Assembly: GCA_044892525.1 (NCBI GenBank)
Contig: CM097885.1
Coordinates: 227,478,001 to 227,542,000, forward strand
Length of the DNA stretch: 64,000 nucleotides
Reading direction: 5' to 3'
Source: Schmidtea polychroa
Taxonomy: Eukaryota
In this document: positions 6,792 through 64,000 of the stretch, piece after piece
Layout of the letters: each line of letters starts with the position of its first letter
How positions within the stretch are numbered: position 1 is the first letter of the stretch
Program-made: the position numbers and the translations under genes
The notes under the pieces: model-generated
Databases searched by the model: none
Told to the model about the DNA's origin: nothing
Seen by the model: the letters and a program-made list of their open reading frames with translations, nothing else

Positions 6792-9075
6792 TGCTGGGGT
6801 AGTGCTCGGTTGACTTCAACCCACGTACGCGCTGGTCTAGGAGATGGGTGTCCATTTAACTTACATTAATTAAACCCACGTCAATCCTGAGCAGAACCCT
6901 GCACAACCTACACTCCAACATAGCACCCGTGAATTGCTTCACGTTGGAAATGTGCTATGTCGGCGAGACTCCAGTAAGCAGGTGAGCCCCTGCCTTAGGA
7001 CTACTCCTTACTGTGGCCTCGACGTCCTTTCCCTGACTGCCGATAGAAGGACTTACGTCGTAATCGCATCATCAAACTTCACTTATCTTCGACCCCGAAT
7101 TAGATGCAAAATTGACAATTACTTTTCGAACTGCAAAAATCCCTACTTGACCTATAAAAGCTACTCCGAGCTACTTGCAAAAAGTACTTAAACACAGAAA
7201 CGAAGGAATTGATAACCAAGAACTGTTTTATTTTGTCATCGAAATACAATACATGGATGAGTGACATATAACATATACAATTTCATAGACAAACGGTGTA
7301 AGGAAAGAGTTAGACCATGATAGTTCAGTTTGGCCGCTACTACACCGCTCGATTGCTCTATGAGGAAGTTTTCATTTCTCCCATCCTGCGTCTGCTAATA
7401 ATTCATCCAAGTCGAAGAACTCGGAGGCGTTTTCCTACCAAGTCACACCAGCGGCAGAGATGATTCGCCCTGGGTTCCCCACCGTTAGATCGATCGCAAC
7501 AGGAAGGTGGTTGAGATTAGTCGGGTTGTCCGAAGATGGTTGACTTTGTTTGGCGACCGCTCGCTCACGTTGCCTCTTTTTACGTTCTGCTCTAGACAAT
7601 TGTCGACGCTTGGTTTTCGGAAAGCTTGGTGCATTCAATGGCACTACCGATGTAGACGCGGATGTGGGCAACACTTTACCGACTTTAGTGATGACTTCTT
7701 CGGTTGGCCTGGGAGAGAGGTCGGCCTCTACGCATCCACGACAGGATTTCTTGGGAGAAGGTGGTAAATTGAACGAAGGATCGTGGTGGACGGGGAAGAT
7801 ATTGTCGGCTTCGTTAATGGGAATACTCACAATCTTCCGAGTAGTTGCTGCTTGGACATATACTTTATGTAGAGCTTCTGACTGCTCTTTGATCAAACTG
7901 CGCTGAGATCTGCTCTCATTTATTAGGGCATCACGACAATGCTCACTACGGTACAGCTTCTTCTGTACCTCTTTCATTTGTACTGGGCTAAACCATGTAC
8001 CTTCCAAATCGTCGATTTTCTTTTTATATCGACCGATCTGGGCCTGTAAATCTCGGATTATAGTGTTTTTGTCTGCGCAGGAGAAGCAGGGTTTGATAGA
8101 AGACTTCGTGCTTGGCAACATTTCGATAACTGTAATGGAGAAAGAATAATAAAGGTAAACGAAAATTGGCTAACTCTACTAAATTCTCCGTGTGGCGTAT
8201 TTATTTATTTAGTTTATAGTTTCTATACATTACGGTCATGAGGTTCAAAGGATTGGCAAGAAGAAAGCAAAATGACGGGCCGGAGGAATCCCCTGTTAAT
8301 CGATATTAAATCCGAGGATGATTTATGTGTATATGGGCTGGTAAGTGAATTCCCCCCCCCCCTTTTAATCTAATATAATAATTTATTGCTGACTAAGAAA
8401 ACTTATAAATGTATGGTCGTAACCATGTTCGCCTTTATTTCGGTCAATAGTTAATGCATGTATAACATACAGAAACGATAAACTAATTAAATAATTTTAA
8501 GTCCGCTTGACAATATAATATTCCAATTTAATATTAAGTGTTATCGATCACAAAAATGTAGAACCTAACTGACTTTACTCGCTTTGATTAATTGCATTAG
8601 TGATAATTAGTGATAATTCTAGTAGTCTAATTTGGTTTGATTGTCTGGATGGTTGAGTACCTGTAACTGTAAGTGTTTGGTTTTAACAGTAACTACAATG
8701 AGTTTACGGTTTACTTATATATGAATTTTTCGTTTATGCGGACCAATCAGAATTTAGTACCGCTTAATTTTTTAAATTAATTTGCTTTTTCCTATTTCTT
8801 TGGATATTTTACTTATTTTTCCTATTTTTATTATATTTTTTATTTATTTCTTAAATTCCTTATTATTTGTTGTATTTTTCGTTATCTTATTCGTTATCTT
8901 ATTACCTTATTTTTAATTTTCTCATTTTTATTTTTGGTTTTAATCTTTATATCTTATTTTATTGTTTCTTTTATGTCTTGACTTATTTATTTTTAAAATT
9001 TGTTGTCTTATTTTATTTTATTCACATCCTATCTGTCTTAATTTTCGACGATTATGTTTTCGACTCAGCCCAACA
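6792..9075 (-). mobile_element. Solo LTR A (2284 bp) of a giant-gypsy-related family
   Basis: Termini TGCTGGGG (6792, one mismatch to TGTTGGGG) and CAGCCCAACA (9075); 4-bp TSD ATAT (6788-6791, 9076-9079). The 5' end TGTTGGGCTGAGTCGA equals that of solo LTR B. Contains the LTR ORF and the RNA module. Confidence 0.9.
7372..8121 (-). pseudogene. LTR-encoded protein, copy A, with a premature TAG at 7435-7437 (228 aa; ancestral 249 aa)
   Basis: Homologous to ORFs at 22668, 30637, 35219 and 61598 (PCFSCADKN, EGTWFSP, EHCRD). The frame continues after the TAG as ENASEFFDLDELLADAGWEK*, matching the copy B C-terminus. Confidence 0.85.
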
Positions 9076-17650: not shown

Positions 17651-20600
17651 ATGTTATATTTATGTTTCTTCTATATTTTTCTTTGGATAATATTGATAGT
17701 TATGCCATTGATAATGTTAGCGATTTGTCAAAATGTTGATTTTGTCTCAAAATTTACACGTAAATTTCTAACTTGAAATCCAGTAAAAAACTTTCTAGAT
17801 TAGGATATGGATTATTCGAAAAACGATTATTAAGTTTTACAATGGGACTTTTATTAGGAGATGTATTTTTAAATATCATGCCAATGGTGTGGAGAAATTA
17901 TAAAAGTAAGAAACATTGATTTTTGTTTATTAATGTCTTTTAAAATGCTAATTTTATATACTATCATATAAATAAAGTGATTATATTTTAACAAAGTTAC
18001 ATGTGATTACTGACTAGAAAAAATCCTCATTTTCAACATTTAAGTTATGTTAGTATTAATTTTATCCACAAAACTGTCATCATTTTGAGACCAGCTTTGA
18101 ATAGCACTTTGGAAACTAACTTTGAATTTTCTATATGTACAGTTGATCATTGCATTCTGTGAACCTTGTTCCAATTTTTGTTTGGATGCTGCATTAAAAT
18201 AATCAAAATCAAGAGTTCTATATCTCTGATTCGAGTAACTCTCAATATATTGTCCACATTTTAATACATTGATGCTGTTCAAATTTCTTGGCAAGCTATG
18301 GCCACAAAATTGTGTGTTAGTATATGGGACTTTACATGCTATTAGAAATTGTATGCATATCGGGAAACTTTTTATTTCGATTGCTTGGCTACCTAAAACA
18401 CATTAACCGTTTGCGGACGATAGGCCAGCCGTGCTGGCCTTAAATTGCTTATACGGTTGCAAACGGTAGGCCAGCAAATTTTGGCCACGAATTTTGTTCC
18501 AGATGTTTAACAATGTATAACAATGTATTAACCAGCTGTGCCGGCCAAACTTTAAAAAAGTCATACCACAATATCAAGCATTCGTATACTAAAAAAATTT
18601 ATGCTAAAAAATATAATAAATTAATTTCGTCCGCAAACGGTTAAAACAAAATTTATATACAGTCTTTCATTATAAATATATACTATATTGGTACAGTGAT
18701 ACACACAATAATACAGAAAATCTACGTCATTATATCCTCAATTATCACTAAAATTGATTTATAACGTGTTTTACACTAAAAACATTAAAAATAACGAAAT
18801 ATATTTTGGTTTGTGACGATATTTTACTGAAAGTGGATTGGCCGTCAATGTGTTAAAAAAAACTTCAAAATATTTTATTATTTTACATTTATTTCTCGAG
18901 AAATATTATTTTAAACAAAAGATATAATAAATCATTTGGAAATAAAGCATCAGTAAAAGCCAACCAGAAATCTTTAGATATTATAGATTATATAAACAAG
19001 TTTCAAAATGTTATTATTTTAAATTGGTATTTATTTTCTAGTTTTTGTAAATTCAGTAAAAATTGTTGATAAATTGTTTGAGTTGTTGATAAAGAATGGT
19101 TATTCAAAGTCATTATATTCAAAATCTACTGATAAATTTATTAAGAATTCTAGGGATCCGTGTTTGCAAATGTTTGTGCGTAATTCGAGAAGTATAGGTA
19201 AGCTTTGCAAGCTTAGAAAAGAAAATTGTTTTTTTACAATATGAGAAACCCATTGTTTTTTTAATCGTTATGTGGATTATATTTTTCTTATATTTGAAAA
19301 TCATAGCCATGTTCAACCATTTTTGTATTATATGAACAGTTTAAACAAAAACATTGTATTCACATATGAAACTGAAAGAAAGTCATTTATCACATTCTTA
19401 AATTTGTTAATTCAGCGAAAAAATAAACATGTGAAAGAGATTTATAGAAAACAAACTGATACTTTCTATACTTCTGAAAGTTTATGTGAATTTCAGGTAA
19501 TAATGAATGTAATGATGATCAACCTAAATTTGTGTTGGTATTGCTGTACTTAGAAGGATTTACAGATTATAAGAGAAATATAAGCAAGCAGTTGGAAAAT
19601 TCAAAATATAAAATTGTGTCTAATTCATGTTATGTTTATTGATAAATCTAAAACTCTGATTGGACTGTGTTCGGATCTCGTTTATCGATTTACATGTAAT
19701 GAATACAATTTTACATACATTGAAGAGACTTACTATCAGCTCTGTATTCGAGTTCTTCAATATTATCGACCGAAGGGATTGATCAATATTATTGACTTCA
19801 ATAAAAGCGGTTTGAGTAAAATAGGCTTGCTTGATTTTAAAATATTATTAATTTTTTTTAATAATTATTGATAACGTTATATTTTTGTTAGGATTTGTCT
19901 ATAAGATTATTGAATTCGAAACGTAATGTGGAAAATTCGTTGAATACTTGTGTTTTGAATATTTTCAATAGTTTTGATATTGGATCGAATACATCTAATA
20001 TATAAAGATGAAAGTTTGTTTGTTTGCTACCCTTAGAATTTCCCACCGTCGGACCTAGGGTGCTGAAATTTTGCATGTGACCCTCATTTGACTCGAGACA
20101 GGTGTTGGGCTGAGTCGAGAATTTAATCGTTGAAAAATAAGAAAGTAGGGAAGTAGAACGTTAAGAAAAATAAAAATAAAATAAATAAAATCAGAAATAA
20201 AATAGAATAAGATATAAGGAAAATAATAATTAAGACATAAGAATTAAAACAAAAAAATAAAATTAAGAAAAGATCAAAATAGAACAAGTTGACAAATAAA
20301 TAAAGAGGAATTCAAGAAATAATAAGGAAATTAAGGAAATAAATAGAAAAACATATTAAAAATAAAGAAAATAAGGAAAAAACAACCTAAAAACAAGAAA
20401 ATTATATTAAATTAATAGAAATAAGCGGTACTCAACTCTGATTGGTCCGCACAAATAAGAATTTGATATATATACAACTACCAAAAACATTAAATTTACT
20501 GTTAACCCCGAGCATTTCATAGAGAGACATTCACTATTCGCGGAATTCTATTTCAAGGATCGACACTACTAGCCAAGCAACCGTCATTCAGAAAACTCCA

Positions 20601-23600
20601 TAACTATTCAAAACCAGTTCAGAGACCGAAATACCATTCATCACAATCATCGACATCCAACGGACCACCATTAGAACTATTTTGGAACGAACAACATTGA
20701 ATTTTGACTCAGCCTAACAATAGTAAGGGGTATTTCATTTGTTTATAGATTTATTTAAGTATTTGCAAAGCTAATAGTAATGTTAAATATTAACGATTAA
20801 ACATTTCAGTTAACTCTCTTCATTTGATTCTCCATTTTAATAACTTTAACGTATTGATGGAATTTGTATTATTTAAGTATTTCAGAATTAATAAAATATT
20901 TTTATCCAGATGTCCGTATTTTACTTGAATTAAAGATTTTATGAATTTTCATTTAACGAGTAACGTGGAGTTGAGATACTCCATGTCATGGTATGAGGTG
21001 CCTTCGGGAGCTCAGCCGGTGGACATGGAGTATTTCAATCACGCAGTTAGATTGGGCCGAAATGTGAAGGCTTCTTCACGGGTCCTATCGCTGAAGATGC
21101 GACTAAATTATCACAATGGGTTATGGTTAAAAGAATCGCTGGTAGACAATGATTTTCACAAAGATAGTCGTACGAATGAAGGGATTTTCAAGGATTTGCA
21201 CAGTGACTGAGGGCGTCGCATTCCTTTTTCTTTCGTCAAGTCGTTTTCGTAAATCTTACCCCTATTGAAAAATGAGATCCAGACAACGATTTAGTGAACT
21301 TCGTCAAAAGTAACGACATCTCATAGTACGCTTCATCTGGAAACATGGTTTTATCAATTTAATTGCGACAACGTCTATTTGCCGGACTCAGTAGAACTGA
21401 TTTCGTATGAAATTCCGTTATCATAGACCCGATGTCATCTAGCCTGTCCAGATTGCATGTCAGGTTACGAAAGTATTCTAAAACTTTAACTAACTTGAAA
21501 CTATAAAATGCGAGATTCTACGAAAACCTCTCTAATGTTATAATCAGAAAGTTTTATAGACTTAGTTATTTCAAAAATTATAAACAGGTAAAATATCACC
21601 AAATTTAATTAATAACATTTATTTCTACAATAAGAGCCAGGTCATCACTGTGTATATCCAAATTATTGAACCTGAGAGAAAATTTCGAACGGCTAAGGAC
21701 AGGTTTCATCGAGACGGCATTACATCTGAATAGGAAAATCCGAGTAGAATGACGCGAGTAGTAATATGCTTCAGCTTTTGGTAGAATTATTCCCTCGACG
21801 ATCACTGAAAAGATCCAATAAATTTCCAAACGATGGTGATCATTCACACAAGTTGATCAGGGTAAAATTCCGCGATGAGAACTGACGGCAGCATAAATCA
21901 TGATTCACATAAATCACTGTGCAGAGAAAATCATACGACAGTAGGATCGATAAAATCACCGTGAAAATGGCATACACCAAGTGAGTGAGATAAGATAGTA
22001 GCCATACACGAATCCATGTGGTGAGAGCACAGAATATCAGACTAGCATACATAGTAGTCGCGACACGTGACAGTCACAATAGGTCGATAATGTAATCAAC
22101 CAGTCGACAGCAGTATCCGCAAATTTGAACATGTGTTATGACCGATGAGATCTCCCATTAGAGTGTTAAAGTAACGGCTGATGTAAACTCATCACATATT
22201 CTCAGACAAATGGTAGACAATATGGATAATCACATTCACTACCGAATTAAAAGTGCACTTCCAATAACAAATTTCGAATCAAAAAATATGTTGAGAATAG
22301 CGATAGTAATTTGTTTTTAATAAAATAAAATAGATAACTTACAGTAAGGTTTGGTCGCATACTATAATGTTCCTCTACTAAAGCATTATTATACTGTTTC
22401 ACCAATAGTATATTTACACCCTATTAATTATTACTTCCCTCATGCATACAATTAGATCAATAGAGAGTCAAAGTTAATAACATGCGTCAAACCGATGGCA
22501 TTTGGTTAAATAAACTGTTTTAACAAATAAGATCCGTAGTAAAACCGGATTGTAGAATAAGTTTTCCTTCTTTTCGTCGGTCAAGCATCCACGAATGGCC
22601 GTGGGTCGTATCTAATTTATTCTAAAATCGTATGTTCTACATTTCATTAGTATTATTTATAGCAAGCATGCTACCAACCACTAAATCAGCATTACGGCCG
22701 TGCTTCTCGTGCGCGGATAAAAACACGGTGATAAAGGACCTACAAACTCAGATTGGACGTTACAAGAGGAAGATAGACGAGCTGGAAGGGACATGGTTTA
22801 GTCCCGCTCGGATGAAAGAGATCCAAAGGAAGCTCGATCGTAGCGAGCATTGCCGGGACGCGCTAATATCTGAGAGCCGTGCCCAAAGAAGTCTAATCAG
22901 AGAACAATCCGAGGCACTGCATAAGGTTTACGTGCAGGCGGCTACAACCCGAAAAATAGTGCAGATTCCCATCCGAGAGGCCGATGACATCTTTCCGCCT
23001 CATCACAACCCTTCCTCGAATCCATCTCCACCGTTCAAGAGACCGTGCCGAGACTGCGTCGAAACCGAATTGTCCCCCAAGCGACCAGATGTTGTCATCA
23101 CGGGTACCAGTAAGCCCCCCACTGCTAGTCCATCTGTATCAGTCACCCTTCTGCAAGTGGCATCTTCAAGCAAACCCAAGCGCAAACAACTCTCTCGTGC
23201 AGAGCGCAAGAAGAGACAGCGCGAACGCGCTACTACAAAGCCAAACATCCCATCAATAGAGGACTCAACCAACGGTGGCAACTCTCACGTGTCCATCGAC
23301 CTAACAACGGGACCCTCGGCACGAATCATATCAGCCGCTGGCGTAATGTGGGAAGAGAACGCTTCCGAGTTTTTCAACCTCGACGAATTATTCGCCGACG
23401 CTGAATGGGAGAAACAATAAAACCCCAGTGGCGGTCAGGATGAAGAACAAGGATCCGATCTATGTTGATTATGATGTTTCCTCTTCTTTCGACAGACATT
23501 AGTAAAGTGTACAGCTGAATCCTTGTGTCATAACGTTGAAATTAATAAATATTGTTGTCTTACACGTTTTCGTTCATGAATAATTAGACTTTAATTAAGC

Positions 23601-26600
23601 GGGTTGAGTAGAGAACCCGCAAGATCTAGTGAGAAATTCCCAATTTGCATTCAGCGAATCCTGGTAAGTGGTTGTGTAAGGAAATGGACGTAAGCCCTTC
23701 TATCGGCAGTCGTGAATGGGAAGTCGAGGCCTCAGCAAGGAGTAGTTTTAAGGCAGAAGCTCACCTGCTTGCTGGCGTCTCGCCTGCATAGTGCAGTACC
23801 AACGTGAAGTGATTCACGGGCACTATGTGGGAAGAAAGTTATGTGGGGTTTCACTCCAGGTTGACAAATCGGTGGCACCTTTTATTCGAGATGGACAATC
23901 AACCCTTAGACTCGTCAACGTGGTAGAGTGGTCAGCCGAGGTGTAACCCCAACACAGGTCATAAGCTATGTTTCAACCCCAGATGACCACCCATAGGGTA
24001 CCCTAAGTCGGTTTGTTTGTCTGTCCGGTCAGCAATTTACCATATAAATAATAATTTATTATATGCTTGCTACTTGCAGTTGAAAGTAAGATAATTTAGT
24101 CAAAAGTTTTCAAAGCAGAATTCAAACATGGAGAATTTGAATTTTATTTGATTAGCAAACCAATTTGCAATTGGAAAAATATAGCCAGTTATTTTTCGAT
24201 TTAAATTGGAGTGCGTTTTCGAGTTTACAAATTGTGAATTAAACATGGAATTGAAGCTGTTATAAAATTAATACTGGAACGTAATAACATTATTAAACAA
24301 AAAATTAATTTAAATGAATTATTATAATAAATGTAAACTCTGGCGAAGCCGGGTACAACAGGTAGTTGAATAAATAAATATATAAATATATATATATTTT
24401 TAAAAAGATTTAAATTCATAGATTATTTGTTAAAATTAAAATAATAAATTAAAATTATAATAAAATATTCTAGAAATTTTTAAATGTATTTATTGAAAAT
24501 AGTCTTAACAGGAGAATTATTGATTATTGGAATTAAATAAAATTTTCTTAAAATTTATGTAATTTGTTTATTAAATTTATAATATTTATAGGTTTTTCTA
24601 TCTTATCTGATAATGAGAGTAAATCCGTCGAAACATATCACAAATCGTGAGGCTTTCTAATAATTAAATCATTGTCATGTTTAATCGTTTTCCTTTGGCT
24701 GGATTAACAAGTCTAAGAACATAATGAATGGTATTTATTGGTAACATGTGATATGTGAAGCTTTGCTAATAAGATCATAGGATCCGAAAGTTAATTTAAA
24801 ATTGCTGTGAACACTTTGTAGGAACAATACCAATATTTAAAAAGTATTCATGAGAAAATTTGATAATTCCATTAGGTGAGCTTCAAACACTGATAACACC
24901 GAAATATGTTAAAAAAACAGAGAGAATGATGTTGCTTAAATGATATGTTCGGCAGAGATCAAATGGTGTTGTATTGAGGATTATAATATTGACTTTTGGA
25001 AATGATATATCTTTGGATTGAACTGTAGATCATATAGAACTGGAATATACCAATGAGAAACCAATACCAGATTTTTACCACAAATTGCTGCAATTCCAGA
25101 GTTTTGAATTCATGTTGAAATAAAAGGTGGTAATGTTCGAAAAAGATTGAATGAATGAATATTTGTTTTCGTTGTTTAAATTAAGCATCATCCTATGACT
25201 AATTTGTTTCATTATTTTTAATTACTAAAACGTAATTCAACCTAAATCTTTTAAAATACCCATGATGGAAAACAACGACAATGAGACCAGGAGGCGTAAA
25301 ACCAGAACGATACTAACTGCAAAAGATCTTGAAACGATTAATGCGATGCGTAAAGATGGTAATTCTTTCGTAAAAAATCGCCCAGAATTTAAATCTATCA
25401 ATTATAACTACTCAGAAACGATTTGTGGAGATTGAAAGGTGTAAGGTTGAGGACATTAACTTATCGACTTTGATTTAGAAGAAGGGCAGGGCCGTTTTAA
25501 TTTTTAACATGCTTTTACAGTTGCAGAGAATTATCCAAGACGACCCACTTTTAACGCAAAGTGGAATGAAGAAAAAATTGGAAGAAAATAATATTAAAGT
25601 GGAATGAAGAAAAAATTGGAAGAAAATAATATTAAATTAAAAGATGTAGAGATAAAAAGAAAAGAGTAAAAATGTACATGAAAAAGTGAATGATGAACGA
25701 AAGTTCTTTTCGATAAAATATAAAAATACTCCAAATTCTAAATTATTGCATCTCGACGAAACAGGACTTAATCTTCACACAATGATGAATTTCGGATATT
25801 CACCGAAGAATTCCCCGGTAAATGTTCTTGTGAAACCAAGAGAAAGGATTGTAAACTGAATGGTTTTGATTTCTAATGAACGTATATTAAAATATAAATT
25901 AATAGACGGGGTTTATAATGCGAGTAGTTTTCAGGATTTCATGAATGAGTCTGTGGAAGAAGGTATTGATTTTAGAAATCAAATTGTATTGATGTATAAT
26001 GTAAGATTTCACAAAACTGCTTCGAAAAGAGAGTTTTTTAGTTCAAAAAACATTGCTTTTGATTTTATACCTCCTACTCGCTCGCATTAAATCCAATTGA
26101 AGAATGTTTTAAGGTAAGATATTTTAATAAAAGACCACTACCACAGACGATATTAAACAGTTAAAAATAACGACCGACGAACATCATATATATAATAATG
26201 AATAATATATATATCAAAAAAAGGTATTTGAGAGGCGATAATGATGGTTATATCCTCGAAAGTTTATGGTGGATCAATATCCTTCAAAGGGTGATCAAAT
26301 TNNNNNNNNNNNNNNNNNNNNNNNNNNNNNNNNNNNNNNNNNNNNNNNNNNNNNNNNNNNNNNNNNNNNNNNNNNNNNNNNNNNNNNNNNNNNNNNNNNN
26401 NNNNNNNNNNNNNNNNNNNNNNNNNNNNNNNNNNNNNTATAACAAAGACAATGACTCATCCGATGACTCATAAAAACAAGTCTCCACTAGAACAAAGCCA
26501 TTGACTTATCCTAAAAATATTTAAAAAAATTATATCATTGTTCCAGCAGTGACCTACTTTTTTTGGCAAACCAAAAGTTATTGTTCCTATCAACCGATTT

Positions 26601-28792: not shown

Positions 28793-31700
28793 TCTATTAC
28801 TAAAAAAACAAAACAAAAAATAGTTAAACATAAAAATTTATTTGGATAAAATTTGACAAAAATGATAATTACGAAGTGTCTTTAGCAAAGACCATTCGAA
28901 CTATAACCTATAATCTCATAATAAGTTGTAAATATTTTATTAACAACCCCCCCCCCCCTAAAATACGTAATCGTTGAAACAAATGTTCAGATATGTATAT
29001 TTGAAACTTATAAAAGTATAAATTACATTTTTTCATAAGTACCCCTCAAACTATACATTAAGCGAGAACAATATATATACAGTTATCAAATTTAATAATT
29101 CCTCAGATCACCTAACCATTAATTATTGTTTAAATGCATTAATTCAGACTATTTTACATGTATATTGGACTTACCTTAAAATTAACTTTTTAAAATAGCA
29201 ATAAAAATATTTCGTAAAACAGAATATATTCAAAATTTTAAATTTAAATTTAGCGGCATTTGGGTACATAGCAGAATATAACTTTCATTGGTTATAACAA
29301 ATTTTTTTTTAAAAAATTAATTGTAGTTCTAATACAACCATTTCAAAAGTCCTACTAATTAATAAATAGTATTTGCATAGCATATCATGTAGTAATTTCT
29401 TTCCATATTATTATTTTCAAAAAGTGAAACAATTATTAAAGGATCGATAGTTAAACTACTTAGAATTAAATTTAAAATTTAGTTGAATTTTAAAGTACTT
29501 TATTGTTTTGGTATCTGCCCGTAGGGAAATTCCCATAGTTAAGAAATTAAATATGAAAAGTTTATGAAGATACCAACAATAGGAAGCTTTAATCAGTAAC
29601 ACGAATTACTATGCCAATGAATACAACCAGTCGTGAGGCGCATATAAAACAGGCGTAGTTCGCTTATAATAACTTGATGCAATTGTATATGGTTATGGGT
29701 GTATGTGAATAGGGATGGGTGTTTGAGACAGAAGGTGTGATCAACAAAAATGCTGATGGTCTAAAATCGACAAGCAAAACGATGGGTAATAGCGGGCACA
29801 CTCAGTCGCACACCGGTATGGTCAACGACTATATTAGACATAGGGTTCATTAGATCATTAGTTAAAGAAACGGACGATAACAAGAGCCGAACCATCAAGA
29901 AAAGTGGTTAGAAGGATAGAGACCAGGCAAAATCGGACACAAGCCTTCTATCGGCAGTCCGTGAACTCAAAGGAGTGCCCGACAATTATAGTGCGGATAA
30001 CGCGCTCACTTTTTGCGAGCACTCGCCCAGTTGATACACTACCAACATTGATCGCTCAACGGGTATCAATTGGCAGGACCATCGTTGTATTCTGGGTTAC
30101 GCTGGAAACAGCACTAAAGAGCCAAATAATTGATCATCATTAACCCGTCATACAAATTATATATTCACCATTTTGTACAATTATTTTCTGCCTTATTGCA
30201 AGTTAATTAAAAATGCCATCATCCCAGAATATATTTGGTTTCTGGGCGAAAAACTGTTCAAGGTGCATTTAACATTCTCCAAAAGATGTGAAAGTTTTCT
30301 CATTTAAATAATTTTGCGAAAATTGAAATAAATGAAAATCAGAATATGTAAAATGTTGGGCTAATAATCAATCTTCATTTTAATTTTTTTGTTGTTTTAA
30401 TTAAGTAAGTAAATGGTCAACTGAGACCGCCCACATAACACTCAAAAAGCACAGAGAACATTTTAATGATCTGGTCTCGACTAATAGTGATGGTTCCAGT
30501 TTTCTCTCCACGCCCCTTAACATGCTAATCATGTTCCAAATATTTTTGAGTAGTCAGTTAAAGATCCGATATACGTGTTCCCCTGTCATCAAAAATGAAC
30601 CAGGATAATTCCTTTCCTTAAAATTTAGTTGTGGATATGAACAGCAAATCCAATACTCTGAAAGCATGTTTTTTCTGTGCTAATAAGAATGCACAAAACT
30701 CGCTACTGAAAGAAGAGATCCTAATATTAAAAGTGAAAATTGATCGTCTGGAGGAAATTTGGTTCACTCCCTTCCAGATAAAAGAGAGGAATAAAAAAAT
30801 CCATCGCCGGAAGTACTGCTGTGACAGTCTAATCAAGGAAAGCAAAGCCCAGGGTGCCTTTATACAAGAGCAGTCTCAAGCTGTGTATCAAGTATATACA
30901 GCCCGCGAACTCGAAACTCACATTTCAGGACTCAGTGCTGACGAGAAAGCCAATATTGTTCCATCTTACCACCTGATGCCGGAACTAATGCTCCCAACGT
31001 CCCAACCCCGGCCAAAGTAAGCATATGTCTCGTGGCGGCACCATTCATAGATTTGAGTGTGCCTACCCAGGTACCGCAGTTCACAAGCCAAAGAAACGAA
31101 ATTTGTCCAAAGCCGAAAGAAACGCTAAAAAGCGGGCAAGAAAAGCCGCTGCATTGGTCCAGATCTGCAACGCTATCTATCTTCCAGACCTTACCTTGGA
31201 GCTGCTGGACGAAGCAGATATACTGTCGGCAGGAGAAAATGAGTTCGAGTTGGATGCTTCACTGACAGATCAAAATGACTGGTAAAGCCTCTCCAATTTT
31301 CTAAACAACTTAGCTCTATTTGTGTTCATACTTATGTTTATAAATCAAATGTTGCTACATCAATATAATAAATTTTCTTTGTTATTGTTTTTCATCTTAA
31401 TAAATTCCTCTTTCTGTTGGATAAAGTTAAATGAGATGGGAGCGGCTGGAGTGAACTTCATGTTCACCTTGGAGGAAAAGTGAATATTCGGACGTAAGAC
31501 CATCTAGCAGCAGTCGAGGACCAGTCCAAAACTCAGGGGGAGTAGTTGTATGGCAGCAGCTCAGCTGCCCCCTATTGTTCAACGACAGTTGGCAGCACAA
31601 ACATGACGGTTGTCATGGTCACACTGATCAAAACATCATAAGTCATGGGCGTTTATTTACAGAGCCAATCAATGATCCGCCTATCAATTCTATTTTCCGT

Positions 31701-32222
31701 TCCCCTAAACGCCAACAAAAATAATATTCATCCATCTAATTAATACAAAACTCCGAAAGTTTTTCAAATAATTTTATTCATCTATTTAAATTTTTTATAG
31801 TGAAATTTTATGAATATTTGTTTTTAAGAAAAATAATGTTATCTAAATTAAATAAAATATTTAGTATTTTTCATCGTCATGGAAAATCATTGGTGGCTTA
31901 TTGTGCTTAATTGTAGATGAAAGGTTATCAAGTAAATTTCAATGCAAATATATATCTAGTCATGATGTTCTTTAAAGATTTATTAGAATTATGGCTACTT
32001 CCAGTGATTGGTGGTGCTCTACTTTATATCGCTCTAGTTATTATGGGACCTTTCATCATCAGTGAGCAATCACCAAAGTAATCATTATTATACAAGCTTT
32101 TTTAAAACTTTTATCTATTAAGGGAATCAGGACTTCAACTTTTACTTATATGTGTTGGAATTGCTATTACTGCTTGCATTTCACTAGGAAGCAAATCTGT
32201 ACCGTTTTTTATAAAATTTTAG
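17651..32222 (+). CDS. Host ZIP/SLC39 (LIV-1 subfamily, ZIP13/ZIP7-like) metal transporter, 9 exons, ~303 aa
   Basis: Phase-consistent GT-AG exons 17651-17759, 17804-17905, 27472-27581, 27645-27764, 27817-27906, 27958-28071, 31865-31931, 31978-32077, 32123-32222 (912 nt). Motifs RLLSFTMGLLLGDVFL, GLWTIGGLITFFICEK, LIHEIPYELRDF, WLLPVIGGALLYIALV. An upstream exon is possible. Confidence 0.85.
18407..18640. mobile_element. piggyBac-type MITE (234 bp)
   Basis: Perfect 14-bp TIR CCGTTTGCGGACGA / TCGTCCGCAAACGG flanked by TTAA on both sides (18403-18406, 18641-18644). Confidence 0.85.
19120..19870 (+). pseudogene. Degenerate Penelope-like retroelement (RT C-terminus + GIY-YIG endonuclease)
   Basis: RYVDYIFLIFE...MNSLNKNIVFTYETE...FLNLLI...IYRK (YVDD decayed to YVDY) and LVYRFTC...TYIEET GIY-YIG-like motif; stops and frameshifts. 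Confidence 0.8.
20103..23954 (+). mobile_element. Solo LTR B (3852 bp)
   Basis: TGTTGGGC (20103)...CCCCAACA (23954); 4-bp TSD CAGG (20099-20102, 23955-23958). Contains an intact LTR ORF and the RNA module. Confidence 0.93.
22668..23420 (+). CDS. LTR-encoded protein, copy B (250 aa, intact)
   Basis: True start MLPTTKS follows a 3' splice site (tttatag|caagcATG). CxxC + coiled coil + basic patch + acidic C-tail; homologous to copies A, C and D. Confidence 0.85.
   Translation: MLPTTKSALRPCFSCADKNTVIKDLQTQIGRYKRKIDELEGTWFSPARMKEIQRKLDRSEHCRDALISESRAQRSLIREQSEALHKVYVQAATTRKIVQIPIREADDIFPPHHNPSSNPSPPFKRPCRDCVETELSPKRPDVVITGTSKPPTASPSVSVTLLQVASSSKPKRKQLSRAERKKRQRERATTKPNIPSIEDSTNGGNSHVSIDLTTGPSARIISAAGVMWEENASEFFNLDELFADAEWEKQ
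25262..26125 (+). pseudogene. Degenerate IS630/Tc1-like DD34E transposase
   Basis: HLDETG, MYNVRFHK (D to Y), and frameshifted PPYS.ALNPIEECF; 34 residues between the second catalytic position and E. Confidence 0.8.
27068..27136. repeat. (ATT)n microsatellite; another at ~28735-28790
   Basis: Visible. Confidence 0.95.
29935..30120 (+). mobile_element. Relic LTR fragment with RNA module, no upstream LTR ORF
   Basis: GGAC-ACAAGCCTTCTATCGGCA-GTCC and CAGTTGATAC-ACTACCAA-hairpin-GTATCAATTG; termini not found. Confidence 0.7.
30354..31717 (+). mobile_element. Solo LTR C (1364 bp, compact family)
   Basis: TGTTGGGC (30354)...CGCCAACA (31717); TSD AAAA (low complexity). Contains the ORF homolog and the RNA module. 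Confidence 0.8.
30637..31285 (+). pseudogene. LTR-encoded protein, copy C, frameshifted near 31020
   Basis: KACFFCANKN, EEIWFTPFQIKE, YCCDSLIKES in frame 1; KKRNLSKAERNAKKR and acidic tail in frame 2. Confidence 0.8.
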
Positions 32223-32377: not shown

Positions 32378-34038
32378 TTTTTACATATTTCTGAAAGATC
32401 TTGTTCACTTAATTCAAAATTAACAAGAAATTAGTGATTCTCATGATTCATCATATGATGGAGTATCAAACAATACAATTTTCAACAATCATTAGTTTTT
32501 CTTTTAGAAAAACCTTTTAAAAAAAACCTTAACACGTCTTGTGAATGTGTTGATAAAAATAAAATATGTATTAAACCAACATTTGTCATAAAATATTACT
32601 CTAAAACTATATTAACAATTAATGAAATAAACGTGGTGCGCCCCAAAGGTTTCCGGCCTATCCCAGTTAAAAACTGTGAACACCGACTTTTTTTGATTAG
32701 TATAACATCAGTATTTTTCAAACCAATTGACCAATATTTTGATACTTATTCTTTAAATGCGCCTCACATTTTTAGTTATAAAATATTGTATTTTTGATAT
32801 TTGTGCCCAAAAAAATTATTTTCTTTTTAGTCCACAAGAAAAACATGGTATTTTAAACAGTTTTTTTACATATATTATTTTGTTCTTTTTAGTCTTCTCA
32901 AATCTTACAACCGATCTTCTGTTAAAACCAATCTTTTTCATACATACATTTTTTATGCAGAACATATTTTTCTCCTAGATCGCGACTTATGACTTAATTC
33001 ACAGTAGTGCAATACATAAATGGAATTTGACGACAGATATATTAGCATTTAAAAAATTTTAAAAATGTTTATGTGTTGCGTCATACGTGCGTTTTTCACC
33101 TAAAACAAATCGGTTAAGTATAATTAAGTTCTGAGATTATTAAAATATTGTCTTGTCATCGAAGGCAAGCATGTTTACAAAATTTCAGCGAAATTGGATT
33201 ATGGAAAGTGCTTCAAAATTCGAACGAAAGATTTGACCCGAACATACAAGAAAGCAAGTTAAGAAAAACGTGATAATAATAAAAATAAAAAAGTCCATTT
33301 CTAACTAGGTGCGAAAATCTTTTGTGCGCACCACGTAATAATTTTTTTATGTCAAATTTAAATCAGCTCGTGTGTTATTTAGAAAAACAAACAAAGTTAC
33401 AATTCCAATGTATTCAATAAAGTTCTTTGATTTCGATTAAAACATCGTTATCAAGCCAAATGTCAAGAACTTCAAATTGCATTCATCAATTAAAGAGAAA
33501 ATAAAACAAAATTAACCGAGCATTCCTTAGGGGTCATAGCTACACTTTTAGCTAATAAGTTTTGACAAATATCTGCGCAGTTAATATTGAGTTAATTCAA
33601 TTCTGAAATAATTTTGGCAATACTTCATATAATTTTCAAATTTCAGTTTCAGTTATTAAATTAATTATAAAATTATTAATAAAATTCCAAAAAGTAACAA
33701 AAAAAATTTTCTTGAGCATAATAAAATGTATTAAAATCTTGGTGAATTTTATACAAAACCATTGGTTGAAAATTACAGTTTTTCCCATATGAAAATAAGT
33801 GAATCATTGACAGAAAAATATTTACCCTACCAGAAAGTGATAATGAAAAAACTGAGCGAAAGAAAGGATAATTACTATTGATAATCTAAATCATTTACCA
33901 AAATATTTCAGCACGCAATAATACTGTTGGGCGTATATGGGAGAAGTCAAACGGACATTCGTAGTGCCGCTGGCATCATGTTCCTTTAGCTCGGGCCATT
34001 CCCCCACATAACCCGCATGATTTACAAATATTCCCTCA

Positions 34039-34174
34039 TGTGAGCCCGTGATGATCTACCCACGTTGGTGCTGCTCACACGGGTCGGAGTTGATCCGCAG
34101 GTGAGCCCCTGCCTTAGGACTACTACGGACCCACTCTCAGTTCAGGTTCCCCGGTGCCTAAGAAGGTCTTACCC
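34039..34174 (-). ncRNA. Conserved structured RNA module in U5 (class unknown); second copy 60418-60553
   Basis: Three helices with compensatory changes across copies at 6919-7059, 23686-23827, 31490-31627, 29935-30073, 14906-15043 and 14528-14614. Confidence 0.6.
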
Positions 34175-34457
34175 ATACTCGTCATGCATTCTTGGTACGA
34201 CCCTGGTCCAAGGGGACGACCCACATTCTCCAATGGTCATTCCAATTCATTTATCCAGTCATAACTCATCACTCTATAACTTTTACGGGACAACACAACG
34301 AATACTATGATTATATTAATGAAATTGAGGATACATATAAACACAAATTGCAGAATCACAACACGTAGGAGAGTACAAACATGCATCATCCAAGTCATTT
34401 ATAAAGATTGTTGAGCTTGATCGCGTCGGATGAGAGATGGGTCAACGACATGTCCAA

Positions 34458-35219
34458 TTATGGGAAAACTTCCCCTTCGGCGATCATCTCGTCGATGTCG
34501 ACCGGTAACCGACGGTCTCGCACGAGCTGGACCCCTTCGGGCGAGATCACCCGGAATATCTCCTTTGTGGGGGTAGAGGGTATTGACGATAACTTCTCCA
34601 GAGAAGACTTGGCCACAGATAACGACGCCTCAAGAGCCGCGATTGCATCTCGGCGTCTTTGATTTTTGGCGGCTCGGGTCGGCCGTTTTCTTTTACGCTG
34701 TGGTTGATGGTTGTCCGCATCGGGTGCTGTAACTGATGTCACTAAAACTGGAGCCAAGATAGGGGCGGATGGACCATCCACCGGCGGCTGACAACTATAT
34801 AAGGCCGGTGCTGGAACAGGCGGCAGATAGGAGCCGTGCCCCAGACAACTGGTTGTAGCGGTGGAAGTACTTTGGTGGTGAGTTGGAAAAACATTACTGG
34901 CCTCCAAGACGGGAAATTCTCGTACCCGTTTGGCCAATTCTGCCTCCGTGTAGACCTTGTGGAGGGCTTCCGATTGCGCCTTGATCGTCAGTCTTTGACA
35001 GCGACTCTCCTCTAGGAGGCTGTCCCGGCAATGTTCCAACCGAAGAATTTTACTGCGCTCCTCCTTCATCTGTGGCGGGGAGAACCACGTGCCTTCATAG
35101 AGATCAATTCTCTTTTTCAGTGCCCCGATATATAAGTGGAGTTGTGCTATGACTGCGTTTTTATCTGCGCAGGAGAAGCATGGACGAAGATCCTTGTTCG
35201 TAGCGGTTGAAGCAGGCAT
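34458..35219 (-). CDS. LTR-encoded protein, copy D (253 aa), in the 3' LTR
   Basis: Intact ORF; splice acceptor directly before ATG (tctttag|ATG); homolog family present in solo LTRs. Confidence 0.85.
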   Translation of the reverse strand: MPASTATNKDLRPCFSCADKNAVIAQLHLYIGALKKRIDLYEGTWFSPPQMKEERSKILRLEHCRDSLLEESRCQRLTIKAQSEALHKVYTEAELAKRVREFPVLEASNVFPTHHQSTSTATTSCLGHGSYLPPVPAPALYSCQPPVDGPSAPILAPVLVTSVTAPDADNHQPQRKRKRPTRAAKNQRRRDAIAALEASLSVAKSSLEKLSSIPSTPTKEIFRVISPEGVQLVRDRRLPVDIDEMIAEGEVFP

Positions 35220-37506
35220 CTAAAGATCAAGACGTTTTGTTATTCGTGGAGTGTAAAAAAAAAATTGCATTGGAGGGTCGTTTCCAAATTTTTGACTACG
35301 AGTTTTACCCTATTTTCAATCATACTACTCGACAATGACCCACCTACCCATGGCGCTGGTCAACATTCACACTCATTTGTCTGCAAGCATCCATACTGAT
35401 AGAGAAAAAGAAAACGGAATTCCTCGAAATAATACATTTATCATAACTTTGACTTTATGTTTGTCTTTCTGAAATTGGCCATTTTTATTTAATGTGTTTT
35501 TATTAATTTACCACAGTCGAATTTATTATAAGTATCCTTCCCTAGTAATAGCATTCCCACTCCCCGCACTACTATATTCATGAAATTACGCGCGAGTTGT
35601 GTCGTAAAAACCTAGTTCGGTATGACTGGTGACTATGGGTGTTTTAAACATCGTGATCGGCTTCATAGAAAAAGAACCGCAAAAATTTAATTTCAATCTC
35701 ATTATAATTTGCTGTTTGATCAGCTTAAATCTTGCGCCATAAATGTCGTCATGACGACGCTTGTTTGTGAATAGTGGTGTATTAGTTTCACTCTGGATGT
35801 AGGCTAGCAGATGTCGTCAGGTCTGTTCGTATGTATGCATTGTATGATTTATTGTCAGCCTGTGTTTGTGGACTAGGTAGAAATTCTACTATTCAGTATG
35901 ACGTAATCTCGCTGTCGGGTTGGACATGTAGTCTAATCATCTCTTATTTTACCGGTACGCAATTGTGAGATAAATTTATCTACTATCTGCACACTAGACA
36001 TGACATTGCTGGCTGATTTTCCAGATAGGTTGGAGTCTGAGAGAGTGTCACAGAAATCACATGAATCTAATTGTGTGGGTTAAATTGCGAATCTACTAGA
36101 TAAGATTGATTTTATATTTAGATTTTTCTCTACTAATTGGTTTTGAGATAAAAACTGTCGACTCGTTTGCTCGTGACTGAGGCTTCAGATGTCTTATCAA
36201 TCGATTTCCCGGCAGTCTCCTACACTCACTCGATGTTGTTGGCGACCGTTTCTTTCGGACTCATAGCCAGTGTTTAAATCTACTATCTGGAGATGTTCAC
36301 TCATCTCTAAAACGGCTATTATCGATGACAGCGACTAGTTGTCGGTTGGTGATTAAGTTTCCCCGGAGTCGACGATAAGCAAGACGATGGATCTATTCGC
36401 TAACCTACTGGCGGTGTAGATTCTAAGGCATCTTCAGATTGCAAGATACGAAATGGGCTTAATACAGAGAATTTCTCGTAAAAACTCGAAATTAATAACT
36501 CCTTCCGGTGGACATTCTAACAGTCACTTTTCTCAATGCAAGACGAATATGGCTCAAACTCCAAGATTATTTAATTACGTGATTGGACACAATGCTGATG
36601 ATAGTTTTAATGGTATATCTCCTGGAGTTCCCAAGGTATCGTTGATTCAAACTATGTCACTCAGAAGTTTCTGCAATGGGTGATTTTCGACAACTAAGAT
36701 GGTTGGGTTTCACTCGATGAAAGAAAGCATTTACTTGATTTGTTAAATCTCACATGGTTTCCTCGCTCCTCACACCCCACCCAAGGCAGTACGCATCTCT
36801 GCCCACTGCTCTTGGACCGGTGTAAAGGACGACTCGACCCGTCTCATCGCAACTCCATTCTCAATAAATGTGCAATAATACAATTTAATTATTCAATAAA
36901 TCAATATAGAAATAATGGAATTATGAGGAAATCAATTAAATAAATGTTCACCTGGCGACCACGACATTTGGATTCCGGGCATGATGACTCTGGTTAATAT
37001 AAATCTCTCATTCATTAAGTAATCACTTTAGTTTCTAAATTCATATGGATCTTGGGCTGGTTCTATCACTTCAATTTCCTGAGTTCATATTCGTAAATGT
37101 CCTCTCCGTAGGACGTTCGAAAAATCCAACTACATCATACCCGGACTCCAGAGGACGTCGTCGCCAGCATCATAGAGAGAAAGCAACACCTTCGTTTAAA
37201 ATATGAAATTTATTGGATTATAAACGTCTTGTTAAATTCATAATAAATATTTAAATCATCATACTAAAATCTAAAAACATAATTTACCAAAAATCTCCGA
37301 AGGTGTTAGATCAAAGTAATATAAGTTTTCTTTAGATAGACTCGTTCGGCTTAACTGAATTCGATCTCCGGTAAAAGTATACGTTATCCGATGTATGAAT
37401 ATGGTTCAATAATCTGTGCTCGTGAGTGGTTCCTAGTTTTCCTGTAGAGTTTCGGGTTAGAATGATTATATAAAGGATAAAATTTTACCTGTAGAGTTTC
37501 GGGTTA

Positions 37507-37559
37507 GAATGATACTCTACAGATTTTTGTCGCTCTTTATATATTACTTTTCGTCCAAT
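37507..37559 (-). promoter_or_regulatory. Putative LTR core promoter (ATTGG box, TATATAAA, Inr-like TCATTC); 5' LTR copy at 63886-63938
   Basis: TATA 37536-37543 lies ~33 nt upstream of the Inr-like A at 37510. CTGATTGG followed by a TATA-like run is conserved in solo LTR A (8715-8747) and B (20441-20475). Confidence 0.55.
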
Positions 37560-38277
37560 CAGGACGCGACTTGCATGTAATATTATTATTTATTATGATT
37601 TTTATGTTTTTTAATGTAATCAGGTATATTTTAATGACTTTTTTCCTATTTTTATTATTATTTTATTTATTTTCCTATTTTTTATTATTTTATCTGTTTT
37701 TCTTGTGGTTTTGTTGCTATTTTATTGTAACTTCATTTTTTGTTTTAATTAGCCTTATGGATGGTTTTTTATTTTTATTTTGTTTTTCTTCTTTTACTTT
37801 TGTTCATTTTTCTTAAATTTTCTGCTATTTTATTTTTTTCTTTTACTGTCGTTTATTAGGTGCCTTCCCTCTTGTCTTATTTTTCCTTTAGGGGTTTTGT
37901 TATTTTAATTAGTTTTTCTAATTTCTTTGTTGGATATTTAATTTGTTTCCTCCTATGTTTCTCGTATTTTTTATATGTTTTTATTTTATTTTACTCTATC
38001 CCTTCTTCGGTTCGCTTTTCCAACACCTTCGGAGCTTGGCCCAACAAATCACTCCGGGACCCGTTAAAATTGCGTCCCGCAATTCACATAATATCGTACA
38101 TTCGAATCGTACCTTCTTTCAGTATAACAACTAATCTCACAATCAAAATCCACACAAACATAAAATTAAAATAACTAAATAATACTTTAATTAAACAGAT
38201 AAAAGGACAAAAATAAGCAAGCAGTGGCCACTTTAGGTGACCGGATTTATACACACAAAGTTTATGAATGGTCGATG

Positions 38278-38913: not shown

Positions 38914-38968
38914 ACTACTATACGAAAATTTTTATTTACAATTATTTACATTGATCATTCATCTTTAA

Positions 38969-39712: not shown

Positions 39713-39827
39713 TTGTAGGTAATTTTATAATCAGGGTTACAGTCCCTTTCATACTTTTACTGTACCATTAATTTTTTTGGTTGGGATACAGGTCCTGATT
39801 TTGTATTTTTTATCTTTCCCTTTATCT

Positions 39828-42469: not shown

Positions 42470-42558
42470 TTCTATAATTATATATATACATATATTCGTT
42501 ACTGGTACAGTTTCGTATTTTTATTTACAGTTATTTACATTGCTATTTTAGGTTATAT

Positions 42559-56961: not shown

Positions 56962-57326
56962 GATTGGTTCTTGAAACTCGATTATTCCTTTTAAATTTTC
57001 CAGCGATGTAGCTAAACTATGGACGGATAATTCTTCTGTTGACCCGGTTAGGTTGTTTGTTATATCGGATAGGCTTTCTCTACTTCTAGATCGACTGGGC
57101 GTATGTCCGGCTGTGGGGTTTTCTTGATCGTATATCGGTGTTTTGTGGGGTCTTTTTGCTCCTTGTGATATTCCTCTCTGCTGCCTAAATGATCGTCCTC
57201 TTTTGAGTTGATCTAATTCGTCTCCTGAAAATAATACGTCTCCTGGCTTACTTGAAGATCTAAGGTTGGGTTTATCCGTGATTCTTTCTTACTCTTTTCT
57301 GTCTTTTCACGTGGATTTTTCTACGG

Positions 57327-60278: not shown

Positions 60279-60296
60279 ATCCCGGCTGAGCCCCCA
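60279..60296 (-). promoter_or_regulatory. Primer-binding site, tRNA-Pro type
   Basis: TGGGGGCTCAGCCGGGAT, 16/18 identical to the classical tRNA-Pro PBS TGGGGGCTCGTCCGGGAT; 7 nt from the 5' LTR end. Confidence 0.85.
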
Positions 60297-60303
60297 AAAA
60301 TCA

Positions 60304-63300: not shown

Positions 63301-64000
63301 TATGAGGAAATCAATTAAATAAATGTTCACCTGGCGACCACGACATTTGGATTCCGGGCATGATGACTCTGGTTAATATAAATCTCTCATTCATTAAGTA
63401 ATCACTTTAGTTTCTAAATTCATATGGATCTTGGGCTGGTTCTATCACTTCAATTTCCTGAGTTCATATTCGTAAATGTCCTCTCCGTAGGACGTTCGAA
63501 AAATCCAACTACATCATACCCGGACTCCAGAGGACGTCGTCGCCAGCATCATAGAGAGAAAGCAACACCTTCGTTTAAAATATGAAATTTATTGGATTAT
63601 AAACGTCTTGTTAAATTCATAATAAATATTTAAATCATCATACTAAAATCTAAAAACATAATTTACCAAAAATCTCCGAAGGTGTTAGATCAAAGTAATA
63701 TAAGTTTTCTTTAGATAGACTCGTTCGGCTTAACTGAATTCGATCTCCGGTAAAAGTATACGTTATCCGATGTATGAATATGGTTCAATAATCTGTGCTC
63801 GTGAGTGGTTCCTAGTTTTCCTGTAGAGTTTCGGGTTAGAATGATTATATAAAGGATAAAATTTTACCTGTAGAGTTTCGGGTTAGAATGATACTCTACA
63901 GATTTTTGTCGCTCTTTATATATTACTTTTCGTCCAATCAGGACGCGACTTGCATGTAATATTATTATTTATTATGATTTTTATGTTTTTTAATGTAATC
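60304..64000 (-). repeat. 5' LTR (truncated by the window edge)
   Basis: Matches 33925-37621 with no indel; no substitution noticed by eye. Confidence 0.97.
60837..61598 (-). CDS. LTR-encoded protein, copy D', in the 5' LTR (253 aa)
   Basis: Translation identical to 34458-35219. Confidence 0.85.
   Translation of the reverse strand: MPASTATNKDLRPCFSCADKNAVIAQLHLYIGALKKRIDLYEGTWFSPPQMKEERSKILRLEHCRDSLLEESRCQRLTIKAQSEALHKVYTEAELAKRVREFPVLEASNVFPTHHQSTSTATTSCLGHGSYLPPVPAPALYSCQPPVDGPSAPILAPVLVTSVTAPDADNHQPQRKRKRPTRAAKNQRRRDAIAALEASLSVAKSSLEKLSSIPSTPTKEIFRVISPEGVQLVRDRRLPVDIDEMIAEGEVFP

Follow-up and report, generated by a model that had tools for sequence, protein, structure and literature searches.

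Can the long terminal repeat (LTR) of a retrotransposon carry a complete spliced gene of its own, and if so, what might that gene do for the element? The question is raised by one open reading frame (ORF) within a 64,000-nucleotide (nt) stretch of the planarian Schmidtea polychroa (GenBank GCA_044892525.1, contig CM097885.1; G000:C1:227478001-227542000 of the 781-Mb, AT-rich genome), hereafter the window. The frame lies inside an LTR of a Burro-type giant gypsy element. The initial annotation of the window listed five copies in four divergent LTR families and took them for a conserved protein gene spread by solo LTRs. The loci concerned are the following.

22668..23420, forward strand: the gene, 250 codons for 250 amino acids (aa), inside a solo LTR and in gag-pol sense
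20103..23954, forward strand: solo LTR carrying the gene at 22668; 3,852 bp, TGTTGGG...CCCAACA ends, CAGG/CAGG target-site duplication
6792..9075, reverse strand: second solo LTR, with an ATAT/ATAT duplication, internally deleted; homologous ORF at 7372-8121
30637..31717, forward strand: decayed copy of a third clade; frame stops at codon 128, remnant of the 5'-unique region (U5), LTR end at 31717
33925..38046, reverse strand: 3' LTR of a full element, 4,122 bp; clade-A gene at 34458-35219 (253 aa)
60279..64000, reverse strand, continuing past the window end to about 64425: 5' LTR of the same element; clade-A gene at 60837-61598

All five frames (8121, 35219, and 61598 on the reverse strand, 22668 and 30637 on the forward strand) proved homologous (tblastn E values from 2e-109 to 1e-21) and lie in LTRs or LTR remnants, and each ATG does stand close behind an acceptor, at 0, 0, 5, 8, and 8 nt after a YAG. 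The count of four LTR families must be revised, since 35219 and 61598 belong to the two LTRs of one element; the copies represent four insertions and three protein clades, and two of them are broken. The 8121 protein, 68% identical to that of 22668, is interrupted by a TGA at codon 229, and its LTR has lost most of exon 2 and intron 2 of the unit described below, leaving just 627 nt between promoter and ATG. In the 30637 copy the basic and acidic parts are in a different frame, and no promoter was found upstream. Here we call sequences like 22668 clade B and those like 35219 clade A.

The 22668 frame is almost certainly a real gene. From 104 loci with an ATG and the protein motif we retained 67 of full length and, at 92% identity, 16 representatives (11 clade B, 5 clade A), with protein identity between clades of 34 to 39% (about 36%). 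Over codons 10 to 112 the pooled pN/pS came to 0.079/0.759 (clade B) and 0.050/0.678 (clade A). Such ratios are in effect upper bounds, given the saturation of many dS values. The linker is constrained too (0.32/0.69 in clade B and 0.24/0.58 in clade A), and the basic segment and tail of clade B (pN of 0.083 and 0.104) are conserved as well as the core. Identity at codon positions 1, 2, and 3 was 0.78, 0.85, and 0.48 in clade B and 0.83, 0.89, and 0.51 in clade A, and all 16 intact representatives encode 247 to 254 aa. The protein-level selection proposed initially, which a dN/dS near 1 would have refuted, is thus borne out, pN being about one-tenth of pS. The absence of database homologues and the numerous broken copies might suggest that the frame is open merely by chance or is decayed, in a stretch of the LTR richer in GC. 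This reading is ruled out by pN/pS and by a third codon position that is the least conserved, with the constant length pointing the same way; we regard its residual probability as negligible. Private changes in individual copies were mostly synonymous (5/30, 0/5, and 0/5), a count that is uninformative on selection after insertion given that the copies were picked by protein similarity. These substitution patterns point to selection on replicating lineages and say nothing on solo copies.

Five protein searches of the genome itself returned 4,055 to 6,519 first-look candidates each (150 scored), figures that are not copy numbers, and many matches were paired about 26 kb apart. In a gene-blind sample, the first 30 of 638 exact matches to the LTR end and primer site, the gene was present in 14 (11 open, 2 frameshifted, and 1 partial) and absent in 16. 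Broken copies made up 5 of the 12 best 8121-type matches and most 30637-type matches, and target duplications flank 10 of the 21 LTR stretches examined. Solo LTRs bear the target duplications of their parent insertion and many are decayed, which does not fit their proposed role in spreading the gene: they are leftovers, not vehicles, and the gene is copied by full-length elements. The solo LTR at 20103-23954 is 95.9% identical to both LTRs of a 29.8-kb element at G000:C1:49.29-49.32 Mb.

How, then, would a gene so placed be expressed? Around 22668 the LTR can be divided as follows, into 3'-unique (U3), repeated (R), and U5 regions.

20103..20496, forward strand: predicted U3, A-rich, 394 bp
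20440..20474, forward strand: inverted CCAAT box GATTGG (20440) and TATA box (20467), common to clades A and B and to a gene-less family with short LTRs
20497..20722, forward strand: predicted non-coding leader, with exon 1 at 20497-20522 and exon 2 at 20523-20722; no ATG in 226 nt
20723..22662, forward strand: intron 2, GTAAGG...TTATAG, 1,940 nt
23544..23549, forward strand: AATAAA polyadenylation [poly(A)] signal, then a GT-rich tract; R probably ends about 20 nt beyond
23571..23954, forward strand: predicted U5, with a conserved block and a donor-like GTAAG(T/A/C)CCTTC at 23690

In undeleted LTRs of both clades, GATTGG and TATA stand 380 to 610 nt from the LTR start and 2.0 to 2.7 kb before the ATG, followed by a 25-nt exon, a 44- to 52-nt intron 1, a 120- to 230-nt exon 2, and a 1.7- to 2.4-kb GT-AG intron 2 that ends 0 to 10 nt upstream of the ATG. 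Donor and acceptor are equivalently placed in all 12 LTRs examined (of 21; the rest had no promoter match or were dropped as duplicate, deleted, or spliced). Intron 1 is missing from 23 of 63 distinct promoter sequences, including the window copy at 20103-23954. Exon 2 is poor in ATG, with 2 in 12 sequences against 9.2 ± 2.5 in dinucleotide shuffles, none of 500 being as low; we used this test because the mononucleotide version (3 against 30.3) overstates the deficit, TG being scarce in the leader. Poly(A) signals lie at +112 to +141 after the stop; the 11/11 clade-B representatives have AATAAA, at +112 to +140, and the five clade-A copies have AATATA (three) or, by eye, AATACA (two) at the same place, variants of a type reported as planarian poly(A) signals (PMC5068929). 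An in-frame ATG 12 codons upstream, at 22632, was considered as the start and rejected, as it lies within the intron. As a separate observation, the donor-like GTAAG(T/A/C)CCTTC recurs about 145 to 150 nt past the poly(A) signal in all clades and in the gene-less family (in the window at 23690 and, on the reverse strand, 34172). The view of the solo LTR as a self-contained cassette holds for 22668 insofar as promoter, donor, acceptor, and AATAAA are all present there as motifs in the DNA.

The position of the RNA start decides whether the gene belongs to R or to U3. In 39 of 40 intron-bearing copies the tail of intron 1 repeats exon 1 (about 11 unit sequences, by eye). Counted from the first T of TATA, the repeat begins 29 to 31 nt downstream in 28 of the 39; depending on the copy, first introns number 0, 1, or 2. 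The match is exact lineage by lineage, as in these copies.

L151, L153, L155, L158, L160, L161, L163, and others; in the window 37441-37490, reverse strand: intron-1 tail that is an exact copy of exon 1, just after TATA

The repeat looks as if copied from spliced RNA and suggests that RNA starts there, about 30 nt after TATA and hence near 20497 in the solo LTR at 20103-23954. With an end near 23570, R would likely span about 3.07 kb, with a U3 of 0.39 kb and a U5 of 0.38 kb. The gene's probable place in R and not in U3, to which the DNA evidence points, is the unusual part and is absent from the initial annotation. In retroviruses R measures 15 to 250 nt, and both sag and nef are U3 genes (PMC12789967).

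A family of gene-less elements bears on the same question. The 16 gene-less matches of the gene-blind sample form one family, with LTRs of 1.55 to 1.66 kb that keep the A-rich U3, promoter position, donor, clade-B hairpin (see below), and U5 block. In the two elements examined, LTR pairs were 99.94% identical, the interior of about 12 kb encoded a gag with zinc knuckles, no pol match was found in the long frames of the interior, and no homologue of the LTR gene was found inside the elements. The promoter is therefore the general LTR promoter, with hairpin and U5 needed in cis and the gene not, and we count the near-identity of LTR pairs in a gag-only family that has no gene as a sign that the gene acts in trans. 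These abundant gag-only elements are about 15 kb long, with 1.65-kb LTRs and the same primer site (G000:C1:5728807-5744373, with L271, L284, and L285, and C1:44.136-44.151 Mb). A supposed loss of their poly(A) signal was dropped, as AATAGA variants stand there. Related LTR sequence is also found in tandem at G000:C2:173.67-173.73 Mb (L184-L196, L278), where at least 21 units, each 2,806 bp long, include about 1.6 kb of clade-B LTR apiece, complete with promoter, leader, and hairpin.

One alternative is that the gene lies in U3, like sag of mouse mammary tumor virus (MMTV), with the upstream promoter serving only the gene, or else that a long splice joining the leader of the 5' LTR to the acceptor in the 3' LTR is the sole source of the mRNA, so that solo LTRs make no protein. 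In MMTV the complete sag ORF indeed falls in U3, where upstream promoters are present too (PMC12789967), a long splice would yield an identical mRNA sequence, several internal ORFs of the element start a few bases past an AG as would suit a shared leader, and a 3-kb strong-stop DNA is far beyond the 15 to 250 nt of retroviral R. A U3 location is disfavored, however, by the want of a second conserved TATA between stop and poly(A) signal (by eye), by the same promoter position in the gene-less family, and by an intron-1 repeat that starts at TATA+30. CCAAT and TATA boxes also occur in 1.65-kb LTRs that need no gene promoter, which we count in favor of a promoter that defines R. None of these points counts against the long-splice-only version, and we consider the alternative in its two forms unlikely.

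Splicing itself has left a genomic trace. In one LTR, L164 (G000:C3:38.416 Mb), intron 2 has been removed exactly while U3, both exons, the ORF, and U5 were kept. The end of exon 2 is joined straight to the 9 nt that follow the acceptor, with no microhomology, and GTAAG follows the matching exon-2 end in all 17 sister loci shown. TTTG stands on both sides of L164, whose left end has 33 additional bases, and no internal region of the family was found in the 40 kb upstream. The splicing of intron 2 does occur, in RNA that was later reverse-transcribed. On two LTRs, contigs from runs X5-X9 (presumed RNA) and X1 covered the intron, showed no GT-AG joint, and are uninformative.

What kind of protein does the spliced RNA encode? 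It comprises a CxxC (C12, C15) with a coiled coil (residues 13 to 98), a disordered linker, a basic helix (169 to 189), and an acidic end helix (about 229 to 250). The basic and tail strings given in the initial annotation as shared by all copies hold within clade B, while clade A has equivalents of other sequence. AlphaFold gave confident helices at 13 to 40 and 46 to 98, a weaker one at 177 to 189, a short end helix at 238 to 244, and disordered linkers (pLDDT of 61 for the whole protein and 78 for residues 1 to 118). A homodimer model scored 0.56 against 0.22 for the best control, with runs agreeing on at least 87% of contacts and a pLDDT of at least 76; in a ligand-free calibration the mark was reached by 21/30 solved homodimers and 0/23 monomers and, among eukaryotes, by 17/29 and 0/30. 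The model has in-register contacts along residues 12 to 87, with C12 and C15 in the interface, unlike the AlphaFold monomer, which is a helical hairpin. The modeling supports, but does not show, a parallel coiled-coil homodimer with its two CxxC motifs at the tip, where they might form a zinc clasp. Arginine is abundant in the basic helix, which has a conserved S/T-x-x-E cap and may be akin to the Rev motif, and the last 22 residues carry a net charge of -3 to -8 in all 16 proteins. Scanning the 16 proteins after residue 115 with nine leucine-rich export-signal pattern classes gave no conserved match.

Searches for relatives agree with the initial impression of no recognizable family, in that neither sequence nor fold returned a specific match. 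Against 5.8 billion proteins, neither the single sequence nor either of two alignments found a homologue; nor did a profile against 1.84 billion representatives or searches of viral and metagenome contigs, and there was no match in Pfam above cutoff (16 members), PHROGs, or PDB sequences. The best ESM Atlas matches (0.88 and 0.84) are leads only. Fold searches gave only generic helical matches, which do not demonstrate a new fold; for the N-terminal domain these were helical hairpins, the best (Z of 10.2, root mean square deviation of 1.3 over 66 residues) being level with many unrelated rows.

The layout of the 5' LTR makes a short spliced mRNA its simplest product, and full-length RNA that keeps intron 2 needs another route. 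Complex retroviruses usually solve this problem with a nuclear protein made from a short mRNA. On protein anatomy, we tentatively propose that the LTR gene encodes an early, dimeric nuclear transactivator of the element's own expression. The ORF lies downstream of the conserved LTR promoter, likely in an R of about 3 kb, and the spliced early mRNA could start and end within one LTR, using the poly(A) signal of the 5' LTR, whereas genomic RNA would keep intron 2 and read through that signal. The basic helix is a putative element for nuclear import and nucleic acid binding, and the acidic end helix a putative activation domain that, much like foamy-virus Tas, would bring in transcription factors of the host; the protein of the short early mRNA would then drive output of full-length RNA. 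The acidic end helix and the want of a conserved export signal lead us to favor a Tas-like activator over a switch like Rev or CERV, with an anti-silencing role third.

Several points weigh against this proposal. The sequence and fold searches yielded no match giving a function, and neither a DNA-binding domain nor a U3 target site was identified. The basic helix is set apart from the dimer by 60 disordered residues, amphipathic tails of acidic character have binding partners outside transcription as well, and the export need of an intron-keeping genomic RNA suits a Rev-like protein at least as well. The start site, the short mRNA, and the use of the 5' poly(A) signal are predictions from DNA; in 11 of the 12 LTRs the choice of donor 2 followed a pattern, and a junction checks it in one subfamily only; unequal crossing-over could also homogenize the intron-1 repeat, as the occurrence of copies with 0, 1, and 2 introns allows; and the copies are related, so that counts overstate their independence. 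L164, moreover, is a single copy (1 of 40 scored and the only such match among 12 pattern matches), and it proves the splice, not which LTR produced the RNA.

With the same layout, the protein could instead be an RNA switch like Rev, Rex, or CERV, whose basic helix binds a hairpin in intron 2 and frees intron-keeping read-through RNA from splicing, early polyadenylation, or nuclear retention, a reading that we consider possible though doubtful. Progeny LTRs keep intron 2 almost always, so the RNA that is copied must keep it, and on genomic evidence the gene is made from fully spliced mRNA while the genome keeps its introns. A candidate target stands within intron 2.

20961..21100, forward strand: conserved RNA hairpin pair inside intron 2; the loop resembles the primer-binding site

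The hairpin is more stable than shuffled sequence (z of -5.2; 0/200 shuffles as good), 11 of its 52 pairs show two-sided changes among six sequences, and no Rfam match was found. It sits in an intron lost from the gene's own mRNA, and the gene-less family keeps it. The arginine-rich basic helix with its conserved cap also suits such a switch, and there is a gypsy precedent in Cer1, which depends on CERV, the product of a spliced mRNA, to export its genomic RNA (PMC10309623). Against this, a conserved leucine-rich export pattern is missing from 16/16 tails, which are acidic, and a loop like the primer-binding site would suit packaging or priming equally. Clade A, moreover, has no clear equivalent: among four LTRs scanned, a stable hairpin was found in two, a weak one in one, and none in one. 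U5 alone folds only weakly better than shuffles (z of -1.6).

A second RNA structure involves the donor. The first 30 nt of U3 (20103-20133) are complementary to the end of exon 2 (20691-20720), beside or across donor 2, with matching changes between lineages, and the duplex beats the best intron control in 13 of the 15 LTRs having a control. Since U3 is present only at the RNA 3' end, the predicted duplex could hide the donor at that end, as foamy viruses do with a U3-dependent structure, or draw the two ends of the RNA together. The foamy-virus structure is near the major donor, which is upstream of a poly(A) signal in R (PMC3694450).

Quite unlikely, in our judgment, is a silencing antagonist or other host-directed effector, in which the cysteine-capped coiled-coil dimer would weaken repression through PIWI/piRNA or chromatin, or would target host signaling in the way of the element's TRAF, RING, and Bcl-2-like cargo. 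Burro elements are repressed by SMEDWI-2 (PMC8532177), the element bears TRAF, RING, and Bcl-2-like modules, and a small early mRNA would suit a counter-defense protein. No known suppressor was matched, however, the sole such row, a furovirus cysteine-rich protein (E value of 0.17, TM of 0.28), being at noise level, and amino acids are nearly fixed while synonymous sites are saturated, unlike a host arms race (by pooled pN/pS).

Among described systems, MMTV sag likewise has a whole ORF within the LTR, expressed from spliced RNA, but its U3 position is upstream of the main promoter, the R of the virus is 15 nt long, and the product is a membrane superantigen (PMC12789967). The planarian ORF, in contrast, lies 2.2 kb downstream of the conserved promoter, shares its LTR with its intron and its poly(A) signal, and encodes a protein that has no membrane segment after the spliced start; no homology to Sag or Nef was found in Pfam (16 members) or PDB sequences. 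Foamy-virus Tas has a nuclear localization signal (NLS) and a C-terminal activation domain (PMC13030746, PMC12282171). The planarian protein resembles it in size (about 250 to 300 aa), a basic NLS-like part, and a C-terminal activation-like tail, here by composition and conservation (PMC12282171, PMC13030746), and the foamy-virus arrangement of a major donor upstream of an in-R poly(A) signal with a U3-dependent structure nearby has a counterpart here that is predicted (PMC3694450). Tas differs in being encoded between env and the 3' LTR, in its internal promoter, and in its mapped DNA-binding domain (PMC12282171, PMC13030746); no sequence similarity to Tas, Tat, or Tax and no fold similarity to Tas was found. 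Cer1 CERV, also a gypsy accessory protein from a spliced mRNA, shares cysteines, a coiled coil, a basic NLS, and predicted self-association, but has 517 aa, exons shared with gag, and M and G domains, and is not LTR-encoded (PMC10309623). General searches found no homology to CERV, whose sequence was not directly compared.

The element to which these LTRs belong is, by layout, a known Burro-type giant gypsy. Its parts in the window are as follows.

About 33925-64425, reverse strand: full Burro-type giant gypsy element, 30.5 kb, with a 4-bp target duplication
43087..57288, reverse strand: polyprotein frame of Gag, (Bcl-2-like), Env, protease, reverse transcriptase, RNase H, integrase, and ankyrin; 4,733 codons open, 4,624 aa from the first Met
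38278-42945 and 59328-59921, reverse strand: accessory ORFs for TRAF (RING, zinc fingers, MATH), two coiled-coil proteins, a small ORF, a possible membrane protein, and a RING protein
37543, near 37494 and 37293, and near 34317, reverse strand: TATA, two donors, and AATATA of the 3' LTR
About 60279-60296, within 60279-60303, reverse strand: primer-binding site, 7 nt from the LTR end, with a TGATTTT spacer

The two 4.1-kb LTRs are 99.9% identical to each other. Pfam places gag, zf-CCHC, fusion glycoprotein, protease, reverse transcriptase, RNase H, integrase, and ankyrin in that order, with Env in frame between gag and pol in one polyprotein; the Bcl-2-like match is weak (E value of 0.075), and TRAF/MATH is in a separate ORF downstream. 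Four accessory ORFs begin shortly past an AG (RING, TRAF, and 39658 at 2 nt, 38913 at 3 nt). The primer-binding site seems to resemble the end of a proline tRNA; its CTCAGCC core reappears in the loop of the intron-2 hairpin. The 3' LTR is preceded by a GAGTGATT motif, and a purine-rich tract was not seen before it. The leader between the RING ORF and the polyprotein holds a tandem 72-bp repeat (58317-58751) common to the element of the other family, and Polinton-like gene sets (capsid-like, ATPase-like, and integrase-like frames, by appearance) adjoin several of these elements (L035, L272, L294-L295).

Burro/GYPSM1 elements of planarians are described as about 30 kb long, with a huge polyprotein, env between gag and pol, and thousands of copies (PMC6431247). 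The window element resembles them in size, multi-kilobase LTRs, polyprotein layout, and Bcl-2-like, TRAF, and ankyrin modules, and differs in that its TRAF is a separate downstream ORF, while the published account (section 7) names neither an LTR gene nor an R region (PMC6431247). No description of a gene in a Burro LTR was found in the literature (including PMC11410931, PMC8532177, PMC13524379 with the words of its supplement, and PMC7264820), though the original genome paper, figures, or Repbase may draw one.

What emerges is a real, selected orphan gene in an unusual LTR position; the host element is known. The LTR genes described so far lie in U3 (PMC12789967). Taken as a whole, one scheme strikes us as conceivable but somewhat improbable: R has been turned into a complete 3-kb spliced regulator gene, the choice of acceptor in the 5' LTR gives the early mRNA, its protein switches the element to full-length output, and every intact solo LTR, among thousands, is a source of regulator, so that insertion debris would control live elements and gene-less parasites in trans. 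If true, a 3-kb R that holds a selected, spliced gene would represent a novel construction of an early/late switch, and reverse transcription would be forced to copy a strong-stop DNA of about 3.4 kb. Solo LTRs are normally promoters only; here they would become potential protein sources at very high copy number in a stem-cell-rich animal, and the gene would offer a small, sequence-defined target for testing control of the dominant transposon of such a genome.

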